Positions 1,251 to 44,538 of a DNA stretch of 64,000 bases are shown here, one piece after another; the stretch's first letter is position 1; each line of letters starts with the position of its first letter. A program made the translations under genes and the position numbers. Source of the DNA: a virus; the IMG/VR virus record IMGVR_UViG_3300050821_003463, positions 30,544-94,543 of that record; one strand, written 5' to 3'. The notes under the pieces were generated by a model that was not told where the DNA came from, made no database searches, and saw nothing but the letters and a program-made list of their open reading frames with translations.

Positions 1251-1525
1251 CGCCCCTCCAGACTGGTTTCAAGGATGCGCAATTCTTCGCTGTTGCTGAG
1301 CACGGGTTCGAATTCACTGGTTGCTTCCAGCAGAGTCTCCCCGAACATCGGACCCATGAGGTCATCAACAGCCCGTGCTGAGTCACGGTAGTAATTTCCC
1401 TTGATCTTCGGGTTGACATACTTCGCCTCGTACCTCTCGCGCAGCGCGCGGAGCGACTTCAACCCATCGCTTTCTTCATCAACCTCGATCAGCCGTTCGA
1501 GCGGGAAATTACGAAGCTGGTTCAT
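1247..1525 (-). CDS. Hypothetical protein
   Basis: GGAGG RBS, coupled to neighbours. Confidence 0.55.
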   Translation of the reverse strand: MNQLRNFPLERLIEVDEESDGLKSLRALRERYEAKYVNPKIKGNYYRDSARAVDDLMGPMFGETLLEATSEFEPVLSNSEELRILETSLEGR

Positions 1526-1772
1526 TGGTGACCTCCACGTTGCGGACGTTGCGCGTGCATTTGCACGACTTGGAACATCCAGAGCAGCGCCACGAGCCGA
1601 GTGAGCCCTCAGCCTCTGGATGCGCTCCCAGGTGAGCCTGGGTCAGTTTGTTCGCTGCGACGCAAGGCGTCTTCTTCGCTACCGTGTTGCAGCAAACCGA
1701 GAAGTACGCAAACTTGGCATCTGCCAAGGGATCGCGCACAGGAACAGGCTTCGACTTGAACGGCTTTTTCAT
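1509..1772 (-). CDS. Cys-rich putative zinc-binding protein
   Basis: SVCC...CSGCSKSCKC; AGGAG RBS. Confidence 0.55.
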   Translation of the reverse strand: MKKPFKSKPVPVRDPLADAKFAYFSVCCNTVAKKTPCVAANKLTQAHLGAHPEAEGSLGSWRCSGCSKSCKCTRNVRNVEVTNEPAS

Positions 1773-1783
1773 AGTGTCTCCTC

Positions 1784-2450
1784 AAAAAATCTGGGTGTTA
1801 GAAACTGCTCTCTACCGCCCCTCCGCGACGAGGATTGGTGAAGGTGTTCGCGTTACCTCCGACCCTGCGTGAGAGCCGAGAGCAGTCACTAACGACCAGA
1901 AATTACATGCGTGTTATGTGGTTTCAACGCATGGAACAGGGTAAGTCAGAACTCGAACCGCGTTTTTATTACGCGATTGCCTGCTTCTCAAACCCACCCC
2001 TGCTTCGAATTCTATTTACCCTTGGGCTCTTGATCCTTCTCAAAACCCCATAAAGTCGGTCATAGGTTCCTCCAAAGATTTAGTGGGCGAGTGAGCCGTC
2101 CTCGCCCCAGGGCACAGCAGCATTATGACCGTGTTCGGCGGGGGCTACCCGCTTCTCCGTGTTCTGCGGTATCTGCCTATCAATTAGGTGCCCAAAATCA
2201 AACTTAACACCGGGAGATTCGAACTCCGGTTCGGAGGGATGACTGGGAGTGACGTCCCACTTTTGCATCTCCGAACTACGCTCACCTACGTTTAAGCCTC
2301 TCACGCACAGTGCCAAGATCAAGAAAGTACCGGGAGAGGTACGGCGAAAAGGTCGGGGGATCGTGCCCAAGTCGACCTTGGCTAATCCTCTCCCTTCAAG
2401 TGGCTGACGTAGGGTCTAGAATGCGCTTCGTCTCCACCGGATGTTAAGAG
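1784..2450 (-). ncRNA. Candidate large structured ncRNA (about 660 nt), unassigned family
   Basis: Intergenic; many perfect helices, long-range pairings, T-arm GGAG-TTCGAAT-CTCC, 3' U-tract. Confidence 0.6.
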
Positions 2451-2470
2451 CAGAAACTTCCTGCATTTCG

Positions 2471-3643
2471 CTAAATGGCTTCCAGGGCAGCGGCAACTTG
2501 TTCATCGTTCAACCTCTCCGTCGTTATCTTCTCGGCTTCTGATTTAATAGTATCGAAGAGAGGTTCCTGTGTCAAGTCCAATCTTCGATAATTTTCGTTC
2601 TTGAAACCGTACCAGCCTTTCGGAACTCCGTTGCCCGTTCCTGCCTTGACGTCTTCCTTCGTCTGGTCGCCTTCGATCACCGCGCCGATTTTGATCGCGT
2701 ACGCAACGACATCGCTCTTGAGATCGAACCCAGTCTCGTACAGCAGGTTGACTATCGTCTCGCGGAACGGAGGACCCACTTTGTTCTTCACGTTTTTGAT
2801 CCGCATCTTATGCCCGATGTGGACTGCCTGATCATCTCTGATCTCGCCCCCATCTGTCTTCGACAACCGACGCACTTCCAGTCGTACAGATGACCAGAAC
2901 TTCAGCGCGCGCCCACCAGTAGTGACTTCCGGATTTCCGAACGTCACGCCGATCTTCTCGCGCACCTGATTGATGAAGATCACCAGGACTCCTGCCCTGT
3001 GCGCCTTCGCTACGATCTTACGCATCGCCTGGGACATTAGCCGCGCGTGCAGACCCATGTGACTATCGCCCATGTCGCCTTCGAGTTCGGCTTTAGGAAC
3101 GAGAGCCGAGACAGAGTCAACGACGATGATGCGAAACGCTCGCGTGTCGATCAAGCCATCGAGAACTTCCAATGCCTGCTCGCCGTAATCCGGCTGGCTG
3201 ATCAGCAAGTTGTCGACGTCAACACCCAGCTTCTTCGCATAGTTCGGATCGAGTGCGTGCTCTGCGTCAATGAATGCTGCGAAGCCGCCCGCGCGCTGCG
3301 CCATCGCGATGAAGTGCAGGCTGAGCGTGGTCTTACCGGATGATTCCGGTCCATAGATTTCAACTACGCGACCATCCGGTAGACCGCCGCAAGACATTAA
3401 AATCTCGTCAAACGTTGGCATGCCTGAAGCAAGGCAAGGTAGACGGACTCCCGTCTTCTTGCCCAGCTTCTGGATGAGTTGCGTCTCGTACTCGGCGTTG
3501 AACGAGCGGATGACACCGTCAATCGCCTTTAGCTTATCAGCCTTCGAGAGTTCCGGCAGCTTGACTAACTTCTCCGCTTTCTTCGACGGGGGTGCCGTCA
3601 CCGAGGACTCCTGGTTGGGACTGACCTTGACCTGTAGAGACAT
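2471..3643 (-). CDS. recA: RecA recombinase
   Basis: GPESSGKTT Walker A, DAEHALD, VDSVSALVPKAE, GGRALKF. Confidence 0.97.
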   Translation of the reverse strand: MSLQVKVSPNQESSVTAPPSKKAEKLVKLPELSKADKLKAIDGVIRSFNAEYETQLIQKLGKKTGVRLPCLASGMPTFDEILMSCGGLPDGRVVEIYGPESSGKTTLSLHFIAMAQRAGGFAAFIDAEHALDPNYAKKLGVDVDNLLISQPDYGEQALEVLDGLIDTRAFRIIVVDSVSALVPKAELEGDMGDSHMGLHARLMSQAMRKIVAKAHRAGVLVIFINQVREKIGVTFGNPEVTTGGRALKFWSSVRLEVRRLSKTDGGEIRDDQAVHIGHKMRIKNVKNKVGPPFRETIVNLLYETGFDLKSDVVAYAIKIGAVIEGDQTKEDVKAGTGNGVPKGWYGFKNENYRRLDLTQEPLFDTIKSEAEKITTERLNDEQVAAALEAI

Positions 3644-4052
3644 TTGCCTGCTCCTGTGCTTTCAGTGCCGCCTCTTCCTTCGCCAGTCGAATGTAGGTCG
3701 ACATGAAACGAAAGAACATAGTAGCGTACTTCTTCCCGCGCATCGCGATGAGCGGCTGCTTGCCCTGCGTGCGATAGAACTGGTCGGTCGTCTCGACCAA
3801 CTGTGGGTGATGCAAGAACCACTGCCACCAGCAGTTCTCACAATTGGTTCGCGGCTCTGTGATCATATCGAGCCTATGCCCGCACTGTTCGAGCAGGACG
3901 TGCTTGACCGTGAAGTAGTGACCGCGCATCTGGCGCAGTAACTTCTCCGTCATTACGGGCGGTTTGCCGTCCGGTCCTGGACGAAGCTCGGGCGGGAGCC
4001 GCTGTAGTTCTTCGGCTGTGAGCCCCGGTTGTTCAGTTATTGGTTCTGACAT
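3537..4052 (-). CDS. Hypothetical protein, possible Zn-binding
   Basis: CGH...CENC; GGAGG RBS. Confidence 0.55.
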   Translation of the reverse strand: MSEPITEQPGLTAEELQRLPPELRPGPDGKPPVMTEKLLRQMRGHYFTVKHVLLEQCGHRLDMITEPRTNCENCWWQWFLHHPQLVETTDQFYRTQGKQPLIAMRGKKYATMFFRFMSTYIRLAKEEAALKAQEQANVSTGQGQSQPGVLGDGTPVEESGEVSQAAGTLEG

Positions 4053-4579
4053 TTAATCCTCCTGAACCACGAAGTCATGTTATACCACTCGTCGTACGTG
4101 AAGTCCTCCCGCTTGCTTAGATTACACCTAGGACAGCAGGCAACACAGTTTTCGTAGGAATACCCGAGCGCTGAATTTTTGCGATCTAAGTTATACCGCT
4201 GTTTTGAACGAGTGCTTCCGCCATGTTGGTGCGGTTCCCACACAAGCTGTGCTAAGCAGTAGTGACATTGAGGGTGACGCGTGAAACGTAGAAACTCTTC
4301 GTAGGTCAAAGTATTCTCTCGTTTCAACCGTGTAGCCCAATAGCACAATGCCTTGTATAGCCATTCATAAGGGCGAAGGGTACGTCGAGTGTGACAGGCG
4401 TCGCAGCCTTGATGCGCGTTGTCATTTGCAAGGCTGCGCTTGAGGTTTTCTCCTGTTCGCAAAAAGATATTTCCACAAGCGCATTTGCAATCCCACAAGC
4501 TGCGTCCTGCTTTGTTAGTACCGTTTCGTTGAAGGACGATGACTTGTCCTATCTGACGTCCGATTAGATCGAGGGTCAT
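4037..4579 (-). CDS. HNH-family homing endonuclease-like protein
   Basis: WDCKCACG N-terminus; CHYC...LDRKNSALGYSYENCVACCPRCN. Confidence 0.8.
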   Translation of the reverse strand: MTLDLIGRQIGQVIVLQRNGTNKAGRSLWDCKCACGNIFLRTGENLKRSLANDNAHQGCDACHTRRTLRPYEWLYKALCYWATRLKRENTLTYEEFLRFTRHPQCHYCLAQLVWEPHQHGGSTRSKQRYNLDRKNSALGYSYENCVACCPRCNLSKREDFTYDEWYNMTSWFRRIKCQNQ

Positions 4580-24856: not shown

Positions 24857-25131
24857 GCTATTCGTTCTCCCTTCGAATTTGTTTGCCCGCGTTGACGAGA
24901 ATGTCGATTACGTTAACGGCGTCTTGCTGTGAAAGTTTGCCCGCGTTCATCGACCAGCCGACATACAATAGCGCGTGGGATATCTTGAGATACCCGGGTG
25001 TGTGCCACGGTTGCTTCATCGTGTTCCCCTCTCATAATAGTTGGCGCGCGCTTCGAGTGCTGCGCGCTTTGCCTGTGATCCGCGCCGCCACATGTAGACC
25101 AGCGCGACGATTGCGAGACTGAAGATAACTT

Positions 25132-41140: not shown

Positions 41141-41340
41141 AACCAGAAATTAACGGGGACTTTCTGTTCCAAGGTCGTCCCCTGAACCCGCTGACGCGGC
41201 AGCTTTAGGCTGCGGCGGCAAATGCTTTCGGCTTTTCAGTCGTAGCAATTATTGTTTCTGTGTCCTGTTAACGGTAGCCACAGCAGCCCGACACGCAAGT
41301 TAAAACCCTGATGCGCCGCAATCGAAACCATGACGCCCCC
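41141..41340 (-). ncRNA. ssrA: tmRNA coding piece of a permuted ssrA; tag (A)ATTEKPKAFAAAA
   Basis: 5' GGGGGCG...TTCGA at 41340; ATAATT before resume codon GCT at 41246; tag ORF 41246-41205; downstream GGGGAC/GTCCCC pseudoknot. Confidence 0.9.
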
Positions 41341-41449
41341 ATCAAAGTCGCCCACTTGACGAATCGCGCTCTGCCGTATTCCGATGAGAGCAACGGGTCG
41401 TTTTCTCGTAGTGGTCAAACACACGCCCTTGCGCTTTCTTGGGCGACTT

Positions 41450-41510
41450 TGGTGGAGGCGGGGAGAGTCGAACTCCCGTCTTACAGCGTCAATGCTAACC
41501 TTCTACGTGT
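41450..41510 (-). ncRNA. ssrA: tmRNA acceptor piece of a permuted ssrA (5' extent uncertain)
   Basis: GAC-GGGAG-TTCGACT-CTCCC-CGCCTCC-A-CCA; pairs with GGGGGCG giving G3.U70; lies upstream of the 5' piece in the transcript. Confidence 0.9.
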
Positions 41511-41915
41511 GTTCTTGAAGAAGCGTTTCTCAAAGTCCCGCTTGCTCCTCAATTTCTCCTGCGTGTACCGTCCGTTTCGCGGAGTCACGCTTTTATATTC
41601 TTTGATTAGCATGCGAGCCCGTCTAACCTTTTCAGGCTCGCGCAGATATGGAAAAATCAAACCTAAAAATTTTATCGCCGCATCTCCGCTCAATGACCAA
41701 ACCCCGCTCGGAGAGTGACTCTTCTTAGAAGGTCGTTTCCCGCTTATACAGCCGCCAAAGCGGGTCCACATCCAACTCAACAAAGCTGGCGTGCAACTCG
41801 GAATTGAAACAGTCGGCGCTCGGTGTTCTCCCTTATGACGATGAGTCAGAGTCACCGTGCCCTCGCCATCGAAGAGTCCTGCTGCGTACGATAAGTCAAG
41901 AGAGTCATTTGTCAT
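41481..41915 (-). CDS. Single-motif LAGLIDADG homing endonuclease
   Basis: YAAGLFDGEGTV, FGG, IFPYLREPEK. Confidence 0.88.
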   Translation of the reverse strand: MTNDSLDLSYAAGLFDGEGTVTLTHRHKGEHRAPTVSIPSCTPALLSWMWTRFGGCISGKRPSKKSHSPSGVWSLSGDAAIKFLGLIFPYLREPEKVRRARMLIKEYKSVTPRNGRYTQEKLRSKRDFEKRFFKNTRRRLALTL

Positions 41916-42010
41916 AGTAACTTATTGGGAACTCGACCTACTTCGAAAGGCTCGGTCGAATTTTACGAGGGACAGTTTAGCCTTCTTGGGACCTCAACCA
42001 CTCAATATCA

Positions 42011-42166
42011 GGTGAGCACCTGCGGAATCGAACCGCCTCTCCTCATGGCTTACTGGCGTGGTACTTGGTATACCTTCCCACGTTTTCTCTTCTGTCGCAA
42101 AACAACCATGAGGTACTGTCAGCCCATAGACGCGCGATTGGGGCTGTTCCATAACAGCGTGTGCCC
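42011..42166 (-). ncRNA. tRNA-like RNA with expanded internal arms
   Basis: GGGCAC/GTGCTC-ACC acceptor-like stem, GCGG-TTCGATT-CCGC T-arm, CCTCATGG/CCATGAGG arm. Confidence 0.55.
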
Positions 42167-42459: not shown

Positions 42460-44538
42460 CTATTTCTTGTAGTACGGACCTTCCCATCCTTCAGCCTTGA
42501 GCACGAAGCCCATTCCCTCAGCCCACTCCGGTATGATACACATCGCCGCCAGCAGGTCCTTCTCTCCGAGAGGAGAATCAATCGGCACCTCACCTACTAT
42601 TTCATCATGGATCGTCATGATGATCGTGAACCCCAGCTTCTCGGCTTCGAGCATGCCGCTAAGCAGAAGGTCCCTGGCGATAGCCTGTACGACGTTTTCT
42701 GTTAGAAGTCCGCCGTAAAGTCGGTTGTCCTTCGCGCCCTTCGAACCATACATGATGAAGTGGATGCCCTCTCTAGGAGGACCGCCCCACGGTGGAGGTT
42801 CGCAAACGAGGCGCGGCTGATGGTAGTGGATGTATCTTCCGCTGGGCAGCTTGATCTTCAGGCAGTTCTCATCGCGCCCATCCACCACAAGACCGTTCAC
42901 ATAAACACAAATACCAGCCTTCAACGCAGTCAGTGTCGCCGCATTCAGCGCAGCCCAGAGATCGCATATCTCAGGGTACGTCTCGCGGAATCCATAGACT
43001 GCTTCCTTCGCTTCCTTCTCGTTCAAGACGATGCCGTATGTCGCGGCGTAGTCAATGAACTTCTCCCAGCCCATCCCGTATCCGCAACCGAGGATGATGA
43101 CCTTGCCTCGATCTCTGTGTGACTTCGTGACCTCGCTCAGCGGAATGCCGAGCTGTGCTGCCATGACTTCTTTGTAGAGATCGCGCCCTTCTGCGTAAGC
43201 TGACATCATTCCCGGGCACTGTGCAATCGCCGCGAGAACGCGGGACTCGATCTGCGCAAGATCGCCCGCGACCAACTTGTTTCCTGGTGCTGCGGCGAAC
43301 GCGCCGCGAATCGTCGACGCTACGACCTCCATCACCGTGAAGATATCCACTTGGAGATGCGGCTGTGGCTTCTCTGTCGGGTGCGCCGCGTTCCACTCAT
43401 CCATCACCGCGTCATACGCTGCAATAACGGTCGGGATATCGAGCGTTCCACTCCGGATAGCCGCCGTCAGAGCATCGGTGCATTTGGAAACTTCCCGGTT
43501 CGGCTTGTACAAGTTCTGCAACTGCACACCGCGCCCCGCCCAGCGCCCCGTGTGCGCGCCGTGATAGATGAACTGGTCGTGCAGACGTCCGTCCGCGCCT
43601 ACGAGGTCTTCTATCTTCTGCAGCTTCGTATACGCGGAGCCGCCGATCTTCTGTTTGAGTTCAAGAATCTTTCGCGGCAGAGGTTTCAGATAGGGGAGCT
43701 TCAGCCCTTCTTCGACGTGCTCAGCATCAAGACTGTCGAACGGATAGCCTCTCTGTTGCAACCATTCGAGCAACTGGTCACGAGAGTTAGGATTCTCCAA
43801 CCCAGTTTCTATCTTCATCTCACTGATGAACTGGTCAACTGCGCCGAGCGCGAGCGCCTTCGCATTCGCTACGTACGCTTTGTCGATCCAGACGCCCGTG
43901 CTGTTCATGCGCTGGTCAAGCAGCCACGCCTGCTTCTCCCCGGGAGTGATGGGAGAGTTGAACGCAACCGCCGCGTGCCACACGCCACGCTCCGCGATGA
44001 CGTCCATGATGCAATACTCACAGAACTGTTTCCATTCCTCCGGATGCGAGTTCCAGTCCTTGAAGTAGAGAGCCGGTGCGGTCGGGTCTTTCTTCAGAAT
44101 GCGCTTGAACTGTTTGCTCGGCTGGGAGAACAGCTTGACGCCGCGCTTATCGCCCGTCGTGTGGATTTTCTTCTCGTCGATATTGAGCGCGTTGCCCGCT
44201 CGGTCCAAGCCGATAGGAAGGGACATGTACGCGCACAGGACGTTCGGGTCATACCATTCGACGAGAGGGATCGCGATGCCGAGTTTATAATGTAGAATGT
44301 CCTTCTCGAAGTTGAAGTTCCAGGCGCACTTGATCACGGTCGGGTCTGTCAAACCGGCGAGGAGTTCCTGGGGCATCGGCTCGCCCAGGCACGGGAGCCA
44401 GAGCTTGGGATAGTCTTCGTCGAATGCCCACGCGAGCATCAGAACGCTGGTCGTCGGGTCCTTGGCGTAGCGATCCAGTCCGCATAGCTTGATGCTGGTC
44501 ATCGAGCGCGTTTCAAAGTCTAGCCAAAGTCGTCTCAT
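42460..44538 (-). CDS. Phage family A DNA polymerase with 3'-5' exonuclease
   Basis: LDFET, HTGRWAG, DLAQIESR, RDRGKVIILGCGYG, TIHDEIV. Confidence 0.95.
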   Translation of the reverse strand: MRRLWLDFETRSMTSIKLCGLDRYAKDPTTSVLMLAWAFDEDYPKLWLPCLGEPMPQELLAGLTDPTVIKCAWNFNFEKDILHYKLGIAIPLVEWYDPNVLCAYMSLPIGLDRAGNALNIDEKKIHTTGDKRGVKLFSQPSKQFKRILKKDPTAPALYFKDWNSHPEEWKQFCEYCIMDVIAERGVWHAAVAFNSPITPGEKQAWLLDQRMNSTGVWIDKAYVANAKALALGAVDQFISEMKIETGLENPNSRDQLLEWLQQRGYPFDSLDAEHVEEGLKLPYLKPLPRKILELKQKIGGSAYTKLQKIEDLVGADGRLHDQFIYHGAHTGRWAGRGVQLQNLYKPNREVSKCTDALTAAIRSGTLDIPTVIAAYDAVMDEWNAAHPTEKPQPHLQVDIFTVMEVVASTIRGAFAAAPGNKLVAGDLAQIESRVLAAIAQCPGMMSAYAEGRDLYKEVMAAQLGIPLSEVTKSHRDRGKVIILGCGYGMGWEKFIDYAATYGIVLNEKEAKEAVYGFRETYPEICDLWAALNAATLTALKAGICVYVNGLVVDGRDENCLKIKLPSGRYIHYHQPRLVCEPPPWGGPPREGIHFIMYGSKGAKDNRLYGGLLTENVVQAIARDLLLSGMLEAEKLGFTIIMTIHDEIVGEVPIDSPLGEKDLLAAMCIIPEWAEGMGFVLKAEGWEGPYYKK

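Follow-up and report, generated by a model that had tools for sequence, protein, structure and literature searches.

The 698-nt non-coding gap that follows recA in a 94.5-kb IMG/VR virus record, with soil as its source, is, with slightly better than even confidence, a mosaic untranslated region of the transcription unit formed by recA and a gene for a small Cys-rich protein, in which at least four independent modules have been joined by recombination. The gap appears to hold new, sparsely sampled structured RNA motifs, and two of its modules look conserved. If the modules called M4 and M2b below hold up, they would be two unclassified structured RNA motifs from poorly sampled soil phages of ~95 kb with permuted tmRNA genes.

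The window analysed here is the whole stretch of 64,000 nt that makes up bases 30544-94543 of the record. The gap lies on its minus strand and is bordered by the stop codon of recA (2471..3643, minus strand; RecA identity among relatives 54-84%) at 2471 and by the ATG at 1772 of an 87-aa gene (1509..1772, minus strand) that encodes a basic Cys-rich protein. Metagenomes yielded 19 homologues of this protein (64-80% identity), in which the Cys positions do not vary, and it matched no Pfam or PHROG family. Its cysteines follow the pattern CC-N ... WRCS-x-C-x-K-x-C-x-C, and the gene comes after recA in every relative seen. The segment directly ahead of its start codon (1773..1789, minus strand) holds the ribosome-binding site GAGGAG and a run that reads as U6 on the minus strand (1784-1789), where the initial annotation had reported a U6 run at the 3' end.

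Numbered on the minus strand, the gap was split from sequence comparisons into M1 (2470-2311), M2 (2310-2078), M3 (2077-1944) and M4 (1943-1790), with M2 subdivided into M2a (2310-2206) and M2b (2205-2078). In the proposed mosaic, M1 would be the dispensable 3' end of recA with a terminator-like hairpin; M2 a portable cassette in which a T-arm-like hairpin is followed by M2b, of ~125 nt; M3 a variable spacer with a small motif common to the metagenome contig L082; and M4 a selected four-way-junction leader that ends ~20 nt before the next start codon. All modules would be read on the minus, gene-sense strand, and we infer their co-transcription and the 5' and 3' ends.

A modular, non-coding gap

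The stretch had been read from its letters as a structured RNA, and it is indeed non-coding: a Pfam search of the gap's open reading frames matched nothing, a tblastn comparison of the genome's stop-to-stop frames of at least 60 aa with the gap, looking for pseudogene remnants, returned self matches only, and a close variant carries indels of 1, 2 and 7 nt in the gap. These indels, together with the negative Pfam search and the lack of any remnant of phage proteins, indicate a non-coding stretch. The Rfam check proposed with the initial annotation, which had not matched the region to GOLLD or ROOL, found no family, including GOLLD, ROOL, tRNA and tmRNA. A cmscan of 1600-2650 against all 4227 families of Rfam 15 at E<=10 gave one chance snoRNA match (E 9.4) and nothing in the region at the gathering threshold, and neither the GOLLD nor the ROOL covariance model matched at E<=10. 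For tRNA, RF00005 had no match at E<=10 and ARAGORN at default settings called no tRNA or tmRNA gene there, whether or not introns were permitted; at -ps80 its calls there were all low-scoring and mutually inconsistent. For tmRNA, neither RF00023 nor RF04321 matched in 1600-2650 and ARAGORN -m was negative at default. A group I intron is equally unsupported by RF00028 (the region at E<=10, the copy of M2b in phage G001 at E<=1), and the region sits between two complete genes, unlike an intron with exons of one gene on either side.

Similarity searches were equally sparse. The gap had no blastn match in the phage GenBank collection, and blastn and nhmmer of the gap against 160 recA loci from viral and metagenome collections gave none either. 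Pattern scans with the T-arm region, AATTGATAGGCAGATAC, a two-anchor pattern of M2b and the M3 motif returned G001 as the sole related match, the others being A+T-rich coding sequence or scattered chance matches in MAGs, and the viral and genome collections held no further homologues of the gap segments. A sigma-54-like reading of TGGCAC near 2316 was rejected by eye, as the -12 element does not fit.

RecA searches yielded one close viral relative (L002, 79% identity; the same contig as G001) and the metagenome contig L082 (84%), and two phages at a greater distance, L163 (RecA 54%) and L164 (RecA 61%), were reached through the 87-aa protein. The order of recA followed by the Cys-rich gene is kept in all four, with a gap between the two genes of 209 nt in L002, 372 nt including a 50-aa ORF in L082, 11 nt in L163 and about 216 nt in L164, against 698 nt in the window. 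With blastn and nhmmer, no similarity was found between the relatives' gaps and that of the window; the gaps of L082 and the window share only short colinear words.

The most informative comparison comes from contigs of the source soil run aligned to 1400-2800, among which a 585-nt contig (X1) carries a variant of the gap. It aligns to M4 (1790-1943) with 14 substitutions and 6 gap letters and to M2 (2078-2310) with 24 substitutions and 23 gap letters, and it has 58 unrelated letters in place of M3 (1944-2077) and 83 letters in place of 2311-2545, that is, M1 and the end of recA. Given that these 83 letters must encode the end of recA as well, we infer almost no room for an equivalent of M1. 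A contig from another soil run matches 2227-2304 at 93% and diverges past 2304, and module edges thus recur among independent contigs. From the variant alignment, M2 and M4 are kept and M1 and M3 are exchangeable. Taken as sequence evidence, these comparisons demonstrate that the gap is modular as well as non-coding. Substitutions separate M2 and M4 from the variant by about 9-10%, against 16.7% for the adjacent coding gene in what is probably the same variant, where the changes listed fall mostly at third codon positions. That M2 and M4 diverge less could come from recent recombination instead of constraint.

Of the two replaced segments, M1 (2311..2470, minus strand) is a 3' untranslated segment of recA with an unremarkable folding z of -0.9. 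Its hairpins are one of GGGAGAGG/CCTCTCCC and, at 2342-2327, a terminator-like one that runs into a U-rich tail; M1's sole shared word with the L082 gap is the 11-mer TCAGCCACTTG. M3 (1944..2077, minus strand; z -2.3) holds an element closed by AGGGUAA/UUACCCU and the motif GGUUUGA(G)AAGCAGG ... CUGACUUAC, whose words are colinear in the L082 gap.

Two observations concern the recA side of the gap. A sigma-70-like site (TTGACA, 17 nt, TACTAT) lies at 2547-2575 on the minus strand within the final 100 nt of recA, in a 30-mer identical in the variant contig and the window just before they diverge; it overlaps conserved coding sequence and may be a coincidence. Two genes upstream of recA, the ORFs at 4037-4579 (minus strand) of the window and L082:2631-3101 show, by eye, Cys-His motifs of the HNH or endonuclease VII-like kind, a hint of a further endonuclease hot spot around recA.

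Helices, long-range pairings and the tRNA-like core

The helices listed in the initial annotation are real as complements. All six coordinate pairs are perfect, namely the local pairs 1804-1812/1878-1886, 1906-1912/1927-1933, 2057-2064/2124-2131 and 2085-2091/2101-2107 and the long-range pairs 1866-1875/2298-2307 (10 bp) and 2028-2035/2317-2324 (8 bp), and each of the five motif pairs (AGGGTAA/TTACCCT, GGGAGAGG/CCTCTCCC, CCTACGT/ACGTAGG, TTCGGAG/CTCCGAA and CTTAACA/TGTTAAG) was found, once each. Complementary 7-mers number 29, against 15.8 +/- 4.9 in dinucleotide shuffles, 1% of which reach 29, and the local helices are therefore modestly above chance. Longer complements are not clearly so: 8-mers number 9 versus 3.9, reached by 7% of dinucleotide shuffles, and there is a single 10-mer versus 0.26, reached by 16%. 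The whole region folds with a z of -2.6 on the minus and -3.6 on the plus strand. By module, M4 (1790-1943) stands out at -4.35, M3 (1944-2077) reaches -2.3 on the minus strand only, and M1 with M2 (2078-2470) is unremarkable at -0.3 to -0.9.

The two long-range pairings had been proposed as pseudoknots. Both strand pairs are exact complements, but individually they are at chance level against shuffles, and their strands are altered or replaced in the variant. The 8-bp pair connects M3 with M1, both of which are replaced there. The 10-bp pair connects M4 with M2; its M4 strand lies within the loop and stem of hairpin H1 and has two substitutions and two deletions in the variant. This pair is unsupported rather than disproved, as the variant's listed differences omit its M2 strand.

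A tRNA-like core had been proposed around M2a (2206..2310, minus strand), the conserved segment that is kept in the X1 contig as part of the alignment to 2078-2310. M2a contains a T-arm-like hairpin, GGAG-UUCGAAU-CUCC (2227-2213), and a UUCGGAG/CUCCGAA arm. The T arm is indeed present on the minus strand, though its stem stops after only four pairs, at a C.C mismatch. A 9-bp helix of CUUAACAUC with GGUGUUAAG abuts the T-like hairpin of the window in the fashion of a tRNA. The 5' strand of this acceptor-like helix, with its CUUAACA (2448-2442), lies in M1 beyond the terminator-like hairpin, and M1 is missing from the variant; the CUUAACA/UGUUAAG pairing contains no G.U, and UUUG, not CCA, comes next. 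M2a resembles tRNA-like domains such as tmRNA and viral tRNA-like structures in that a G+C stem carries a UUCGAAU loop and, in the window, the next helix sits as an acceptor stem would; a likeness of the same kind is found in an element at 42011-42166, present in the window phage and G001, in which GGUG follows a 4-pair T-like hairpin. Unlike those domains, M2a has a T stem of four pairs and no D arm, CCA or G3.U70. With ARAGORN and the Rfam tRNA and tmRNA models negative, and a closing helix that needs a segment missing from the variant, the core as proposed is not supported.

Structured modules and rival readings

In its predicted fold, M4 (1790..1943, minus strand) is the best-supported structured RNA of the gap, read on the gene-sense strand, on the evidence of folding, the variant's substitutions and an analogue in L002. 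In the minimum-energy structure a hairpin of 7 bp (1906-1933) accompanies a four-way junction (1899-1791). Three stacked helices, CUGG/CCAG, GUUAG/CUAAC and ACUGCUCUC/GAGAGCAGU, close the junction, which has three inner hairpins, and the structure lies directly upstream of the ribosome-binding site of the next gene. The listed differences of the variant, short of the full set by 10 substitutions and 4 indels, include ten substitutions in M4. Six fall at unpaired positions, those at 1831 and 1822 together form a compensatory change from U-A to G-C, the one at 1882 leaves U.G in place of C-G on the minus strand, and the last disrupts a terminal pair; the two bases lost through single-base deletions at 1840 and 1860 pair with each other. 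With the structure predicted from the window itself and the variant represented by its listed differences, the 10 substitutions break one pair on the minus strand, where 5.1 are expected for random substitutions (P = 0.008), and three on the plus strand, where 4.6 are expected (P = 0.24). Within these comparisons, structure-preserving evolution of M4 on the gene-sense strand is demonstrated.

At the same place L002 has an analogous closed element of three hairpins (z -4.5), which has in common with M4 the H3 loop GUYGCG, on a stem that covaries, and the 3' strand ahead of the ribosome-binding site. The U6 run is kept in neither relative: the loose end of the variant reads CCUUUAAGAGGAG on the minus strand, and the run is absent from L002. 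Hence the reading of M4 plus U6 as an intrinsic terminator was rejected.

Phage mRNA 5' leaders can be translational operators, as in the leader pseudoknot of T4 gene 32. M4 has the marks of a structured cis-acting mRNA leader in its position before the ribosome-binding site, its structure-preserving substitutions and its reading on the mRNA strand, and it resembles leaders of the gene 32 type in being conserved and very stable and in ending just before the ribosome-binding site of a gene for a small basic protein. It differs from described leaders in its ~110-nt four-way junction and in having no sequence or model similarity to them. M4 probably has a cis effect on how the downstream mRNA is translated or how stable it is, and it could be a candidate operator, for instance for the small basic zinc-type protein encoded next to it.

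M2b (2078..2205, minus strand), of ~125 nt, was recognised by its homology to an insertion in G001 (L165:1417-1548). A search of the relatives' whole records found window 2205-2083 there at a different locus, immediately upstream of a permuted tmRNA, with matches to G001:25061-25108 and 24987-25006 (E 1e-5). G003 has the same tmRNA region without the ~135-nt insertion. In G001, M2b lies ~40 kb from the M4-like element, which follows recA. The sequence comparison makes M2b a portable structured module, as judged from three copies (window, G001 and the variant, the last rebuilt from its listed differences only). The strands AAUUGAUAGGCAGAUAC and GUCAUAAUGCUGCUG are invariant in all three. The outer helix P1 (2193-2188 with 2115-2110) is GGGCAC/GUGCCC in the window and GACCC/GGGUC in G001, with two compensatory pair changes that demonstrate its covariation between these two copies. 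P2 pairs GGCAG (2177-2173) with CUGCU (2120-2116) and holds a G.U pair valid on the minus strand only; the 3' hairpin (2107-2101 with 2091-2085) is constant; and an inner G+C-rich hairpin is retained with a different sequence in each copy. Thermodynamically M2 is ordinary (z -0.3), and the copies differ in how its interior is arranged.

M2 is probably, on this comparison, a mobile RNA element spread by the recombination that endonucleases drive, and it may be a putative processing or stability signal recognised by tRNA-maturation enzymes. If true, M2b would be a structured RNA cassette that moves between the leader of an RNA gene and an mRNA untranslated region, and this mobility would bear on how the non-coding regions of phages are assembled. 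A bolder reading, which we consider quite unlikely, takes M2b as a small structured RNA of a new, mobile kind, which may be catalytic or may be a processing signal and which inserts in phage RNA genes and untranslated regions, here the tmRNA leader of one phage and the recA 3' region of another, in the niche of homing-endonuclease genes, with M4 as an unrelated new leader motif.

The initial annotation had read the gap as a single RNA class of about 660 nt. In a form that takes account of the variant, this would be one large ornate non-coding RNA of about 450-660 nt with M2 and M4 as conserved cores, M1 and M3 as variable periphery and a tRNA-like junction. GOLLD and ROOL resemble the gap as phage-borne, helix-rich non-coding stretches of several hundred bases in genomes with tRNA and tmRNA genes, and known large phage RNAs also contain variable regions, as the replaced M1 and M3 would be. 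The lack of ORFs and Rfam matches, the joint presence of M2 and M4 in the window and the variant contig, and the 9-bp helix that abuts the T-arm-like hairpin as an acceptor stem abuts a T arm all fit such an RNA. However, the gap matches no GOLLD or ROOL covariance model, is not kept as a unit in syntenic relatives, in which it ranges from 11 nt (L163) to the window's 698 nt, and has two of its four segments swapped in the variant. The strongest argument against one large RNA is that M2b and the M4-like element are ~40 kb apart in G001. The architecture fares no better internally: the 5' acceptor-like strand is lost with M1, the 8-bp pair spans the two replaced segments, the 10-bp pair is at chance level (16% of shuffles) with an altered M4 strand, and ARAGORN and the tRNA and tmRNA models are negative. 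We therefore regard one large RNA as highly improbable. The unmatched structured motifs appear to be new, with M2b and M4 as separate modules rather than one large RNA, and covariation among homologues is seen in parts (M4 and P1 of M2b) and not in the long-range helices or the whole architecture; its basis is the window, one variant with its listed differences and one or two distant relatives, or two to three sequences per module. Dense exact helices in one genome can thus arise from several juxtaposed modules, and comparison with a close variant tells these from a single large RNA.

The mosaic reading has also to be weighed against two others. Much of the gap could be functionless recombination debris near homing-endonuclease hot spots, with incidental hairpins and simple terminators and a role only for the gene-adjacent leader. 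The extreme variation of the gap in length and content, the replacement of whole segments in the variant, the endonuclease genes at the matching tmRNA site, the failure of M1 and M2 to fold better than shuffles and the lack of further homologues in viral or genome collections would all follow. This reading is nevertheless unlikely, given that substitutions in M4 avoid or compensate pairs, that M2b retains long invariant strands and a covarying helix despite its change of locus, and that divergence is lower in M2 and M4 than in the coding gene next to them. Alternatively, M2 (~230 nt, 2310-2078) could encode, as a gene of its own, a small RNA that has a tRNA-like arm, ends at a GGGCGAG/CUCGCCC hairpin and acts in trans, for instance as a decoy or substrate of host enzymes that process or target tRNAs. 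Its edges are sharp and reproducible (5' at 2310 and 2304 in two variants; 3' at 2078 against the variant and ~2083 against G001), the hairpin has the T-loop consensus, and the phage carries five tRNAs, a tmRNA and a further tRNA-like element of ~150 nt. We rate a small RNA gene as very unlikely: no promoter-like site lies ahead of M2, the variant's M2 probably comes almost directly after the recA stop, as fits a 3' untranslated region, the T stem has four pairs and neither a D arm nor CCA accompanies it, and G001 has M2b alone, without the T-arm part.

The permuted tmRNA locus

The window's own permuted tmRNA lies at 41205-41510 on the minus strand, and a tRNA-Thr and this tmRNA, near 40-41.5 kb, are the genuine RNA genes of the window. 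At the site at which G001 carries M2b, the window has a 144-aa homing-endonuclease ORF (41481-41915, minus strand; PHROG 5046, labelled HNH, E 8.5e-21) with, by eye, a LAGLIDADG-like motif near its N terminus. A conserved pseudoknot-like module flanks the ORF on one side and the tmRNA acceptor piece on the other, and the ORF shares its final ~30 nt with the beginning of the Rfam tmRNA match. Among the relatives, the same site holds M2b in G001 and nothing in G003, and G002 has an HNH ORF nearby.

Published tmRNA introns all lie in the T-loop of standard-form genes, average about 290-410 nt and sometimes bear homing-endonuclease genes (PMC11915505); an endonuclease gene in the leader of a permuted tmRNA may thus be unreported. 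M2b resembles such intervening sequences and group I introns in that its G001 copy lies within the tmRNA gene region, where the window has a homing-endonuclease ORF. It differs from them in its length of ~125-140 nt, in lying ahead of a permuted gene's acceptor piece and in having no Rfam group I match. The idea of a group I intron in M2b and at the tmRNA locus was rejected: the putative R-element word belongs to the pseudoknot-like module, which is conserved in G003 without the insertion, and a P7/J8-7-like (S-element-like) word of G001 is not kept in the window copy of M2b.

The pseudoknot-like module itself, upstream of the tmRNA acceptor piece, is conserved in three phages (41925-42005 on the minus strand of the window, L165:1350-1410 and L175:1430-1490). 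In it AAGGCU pairs with AGCCUU in the loop of a covarying hairpin (CGACC/GGUCG versus GUGCC/GGCAC), which makes a pseudoknot-like fold that is possibly part of an extended acceptor piece. Further upstream of the tmRNA, the window phage and G001 share the tRNA-like four-way element of ~150 nt (42011-42166, minus strand; L165:1185-1333), which ARAGORN does not call. Its 6-bp acceptor-like stem GGGCAC/GUGCYC is followed by A-CC. The D-like arm contains GG, the third arm is long, and the T-like hairpin has four pairs and a UUCGAnU loop. Covariation between the window phage and G001 is seen in both the D-like and the T-like stem.

A 692-aa ORF (42460-44538, minus strand), whose end lies just upstream of the tmRNA region, aligns with the DNA_pol_A Pfam profile (381 positions) over 137-254 only; it may encode a divergent or a split polymerase. 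Over the whole record, ARAGORN calls tRNA-Tyr, Ile, Asn, Ala and Thr and the tmRNA, of which the 81-nt tRNA-Ile (anticodon tat; genome 25015-25095) lies 5.4 kb before the window.
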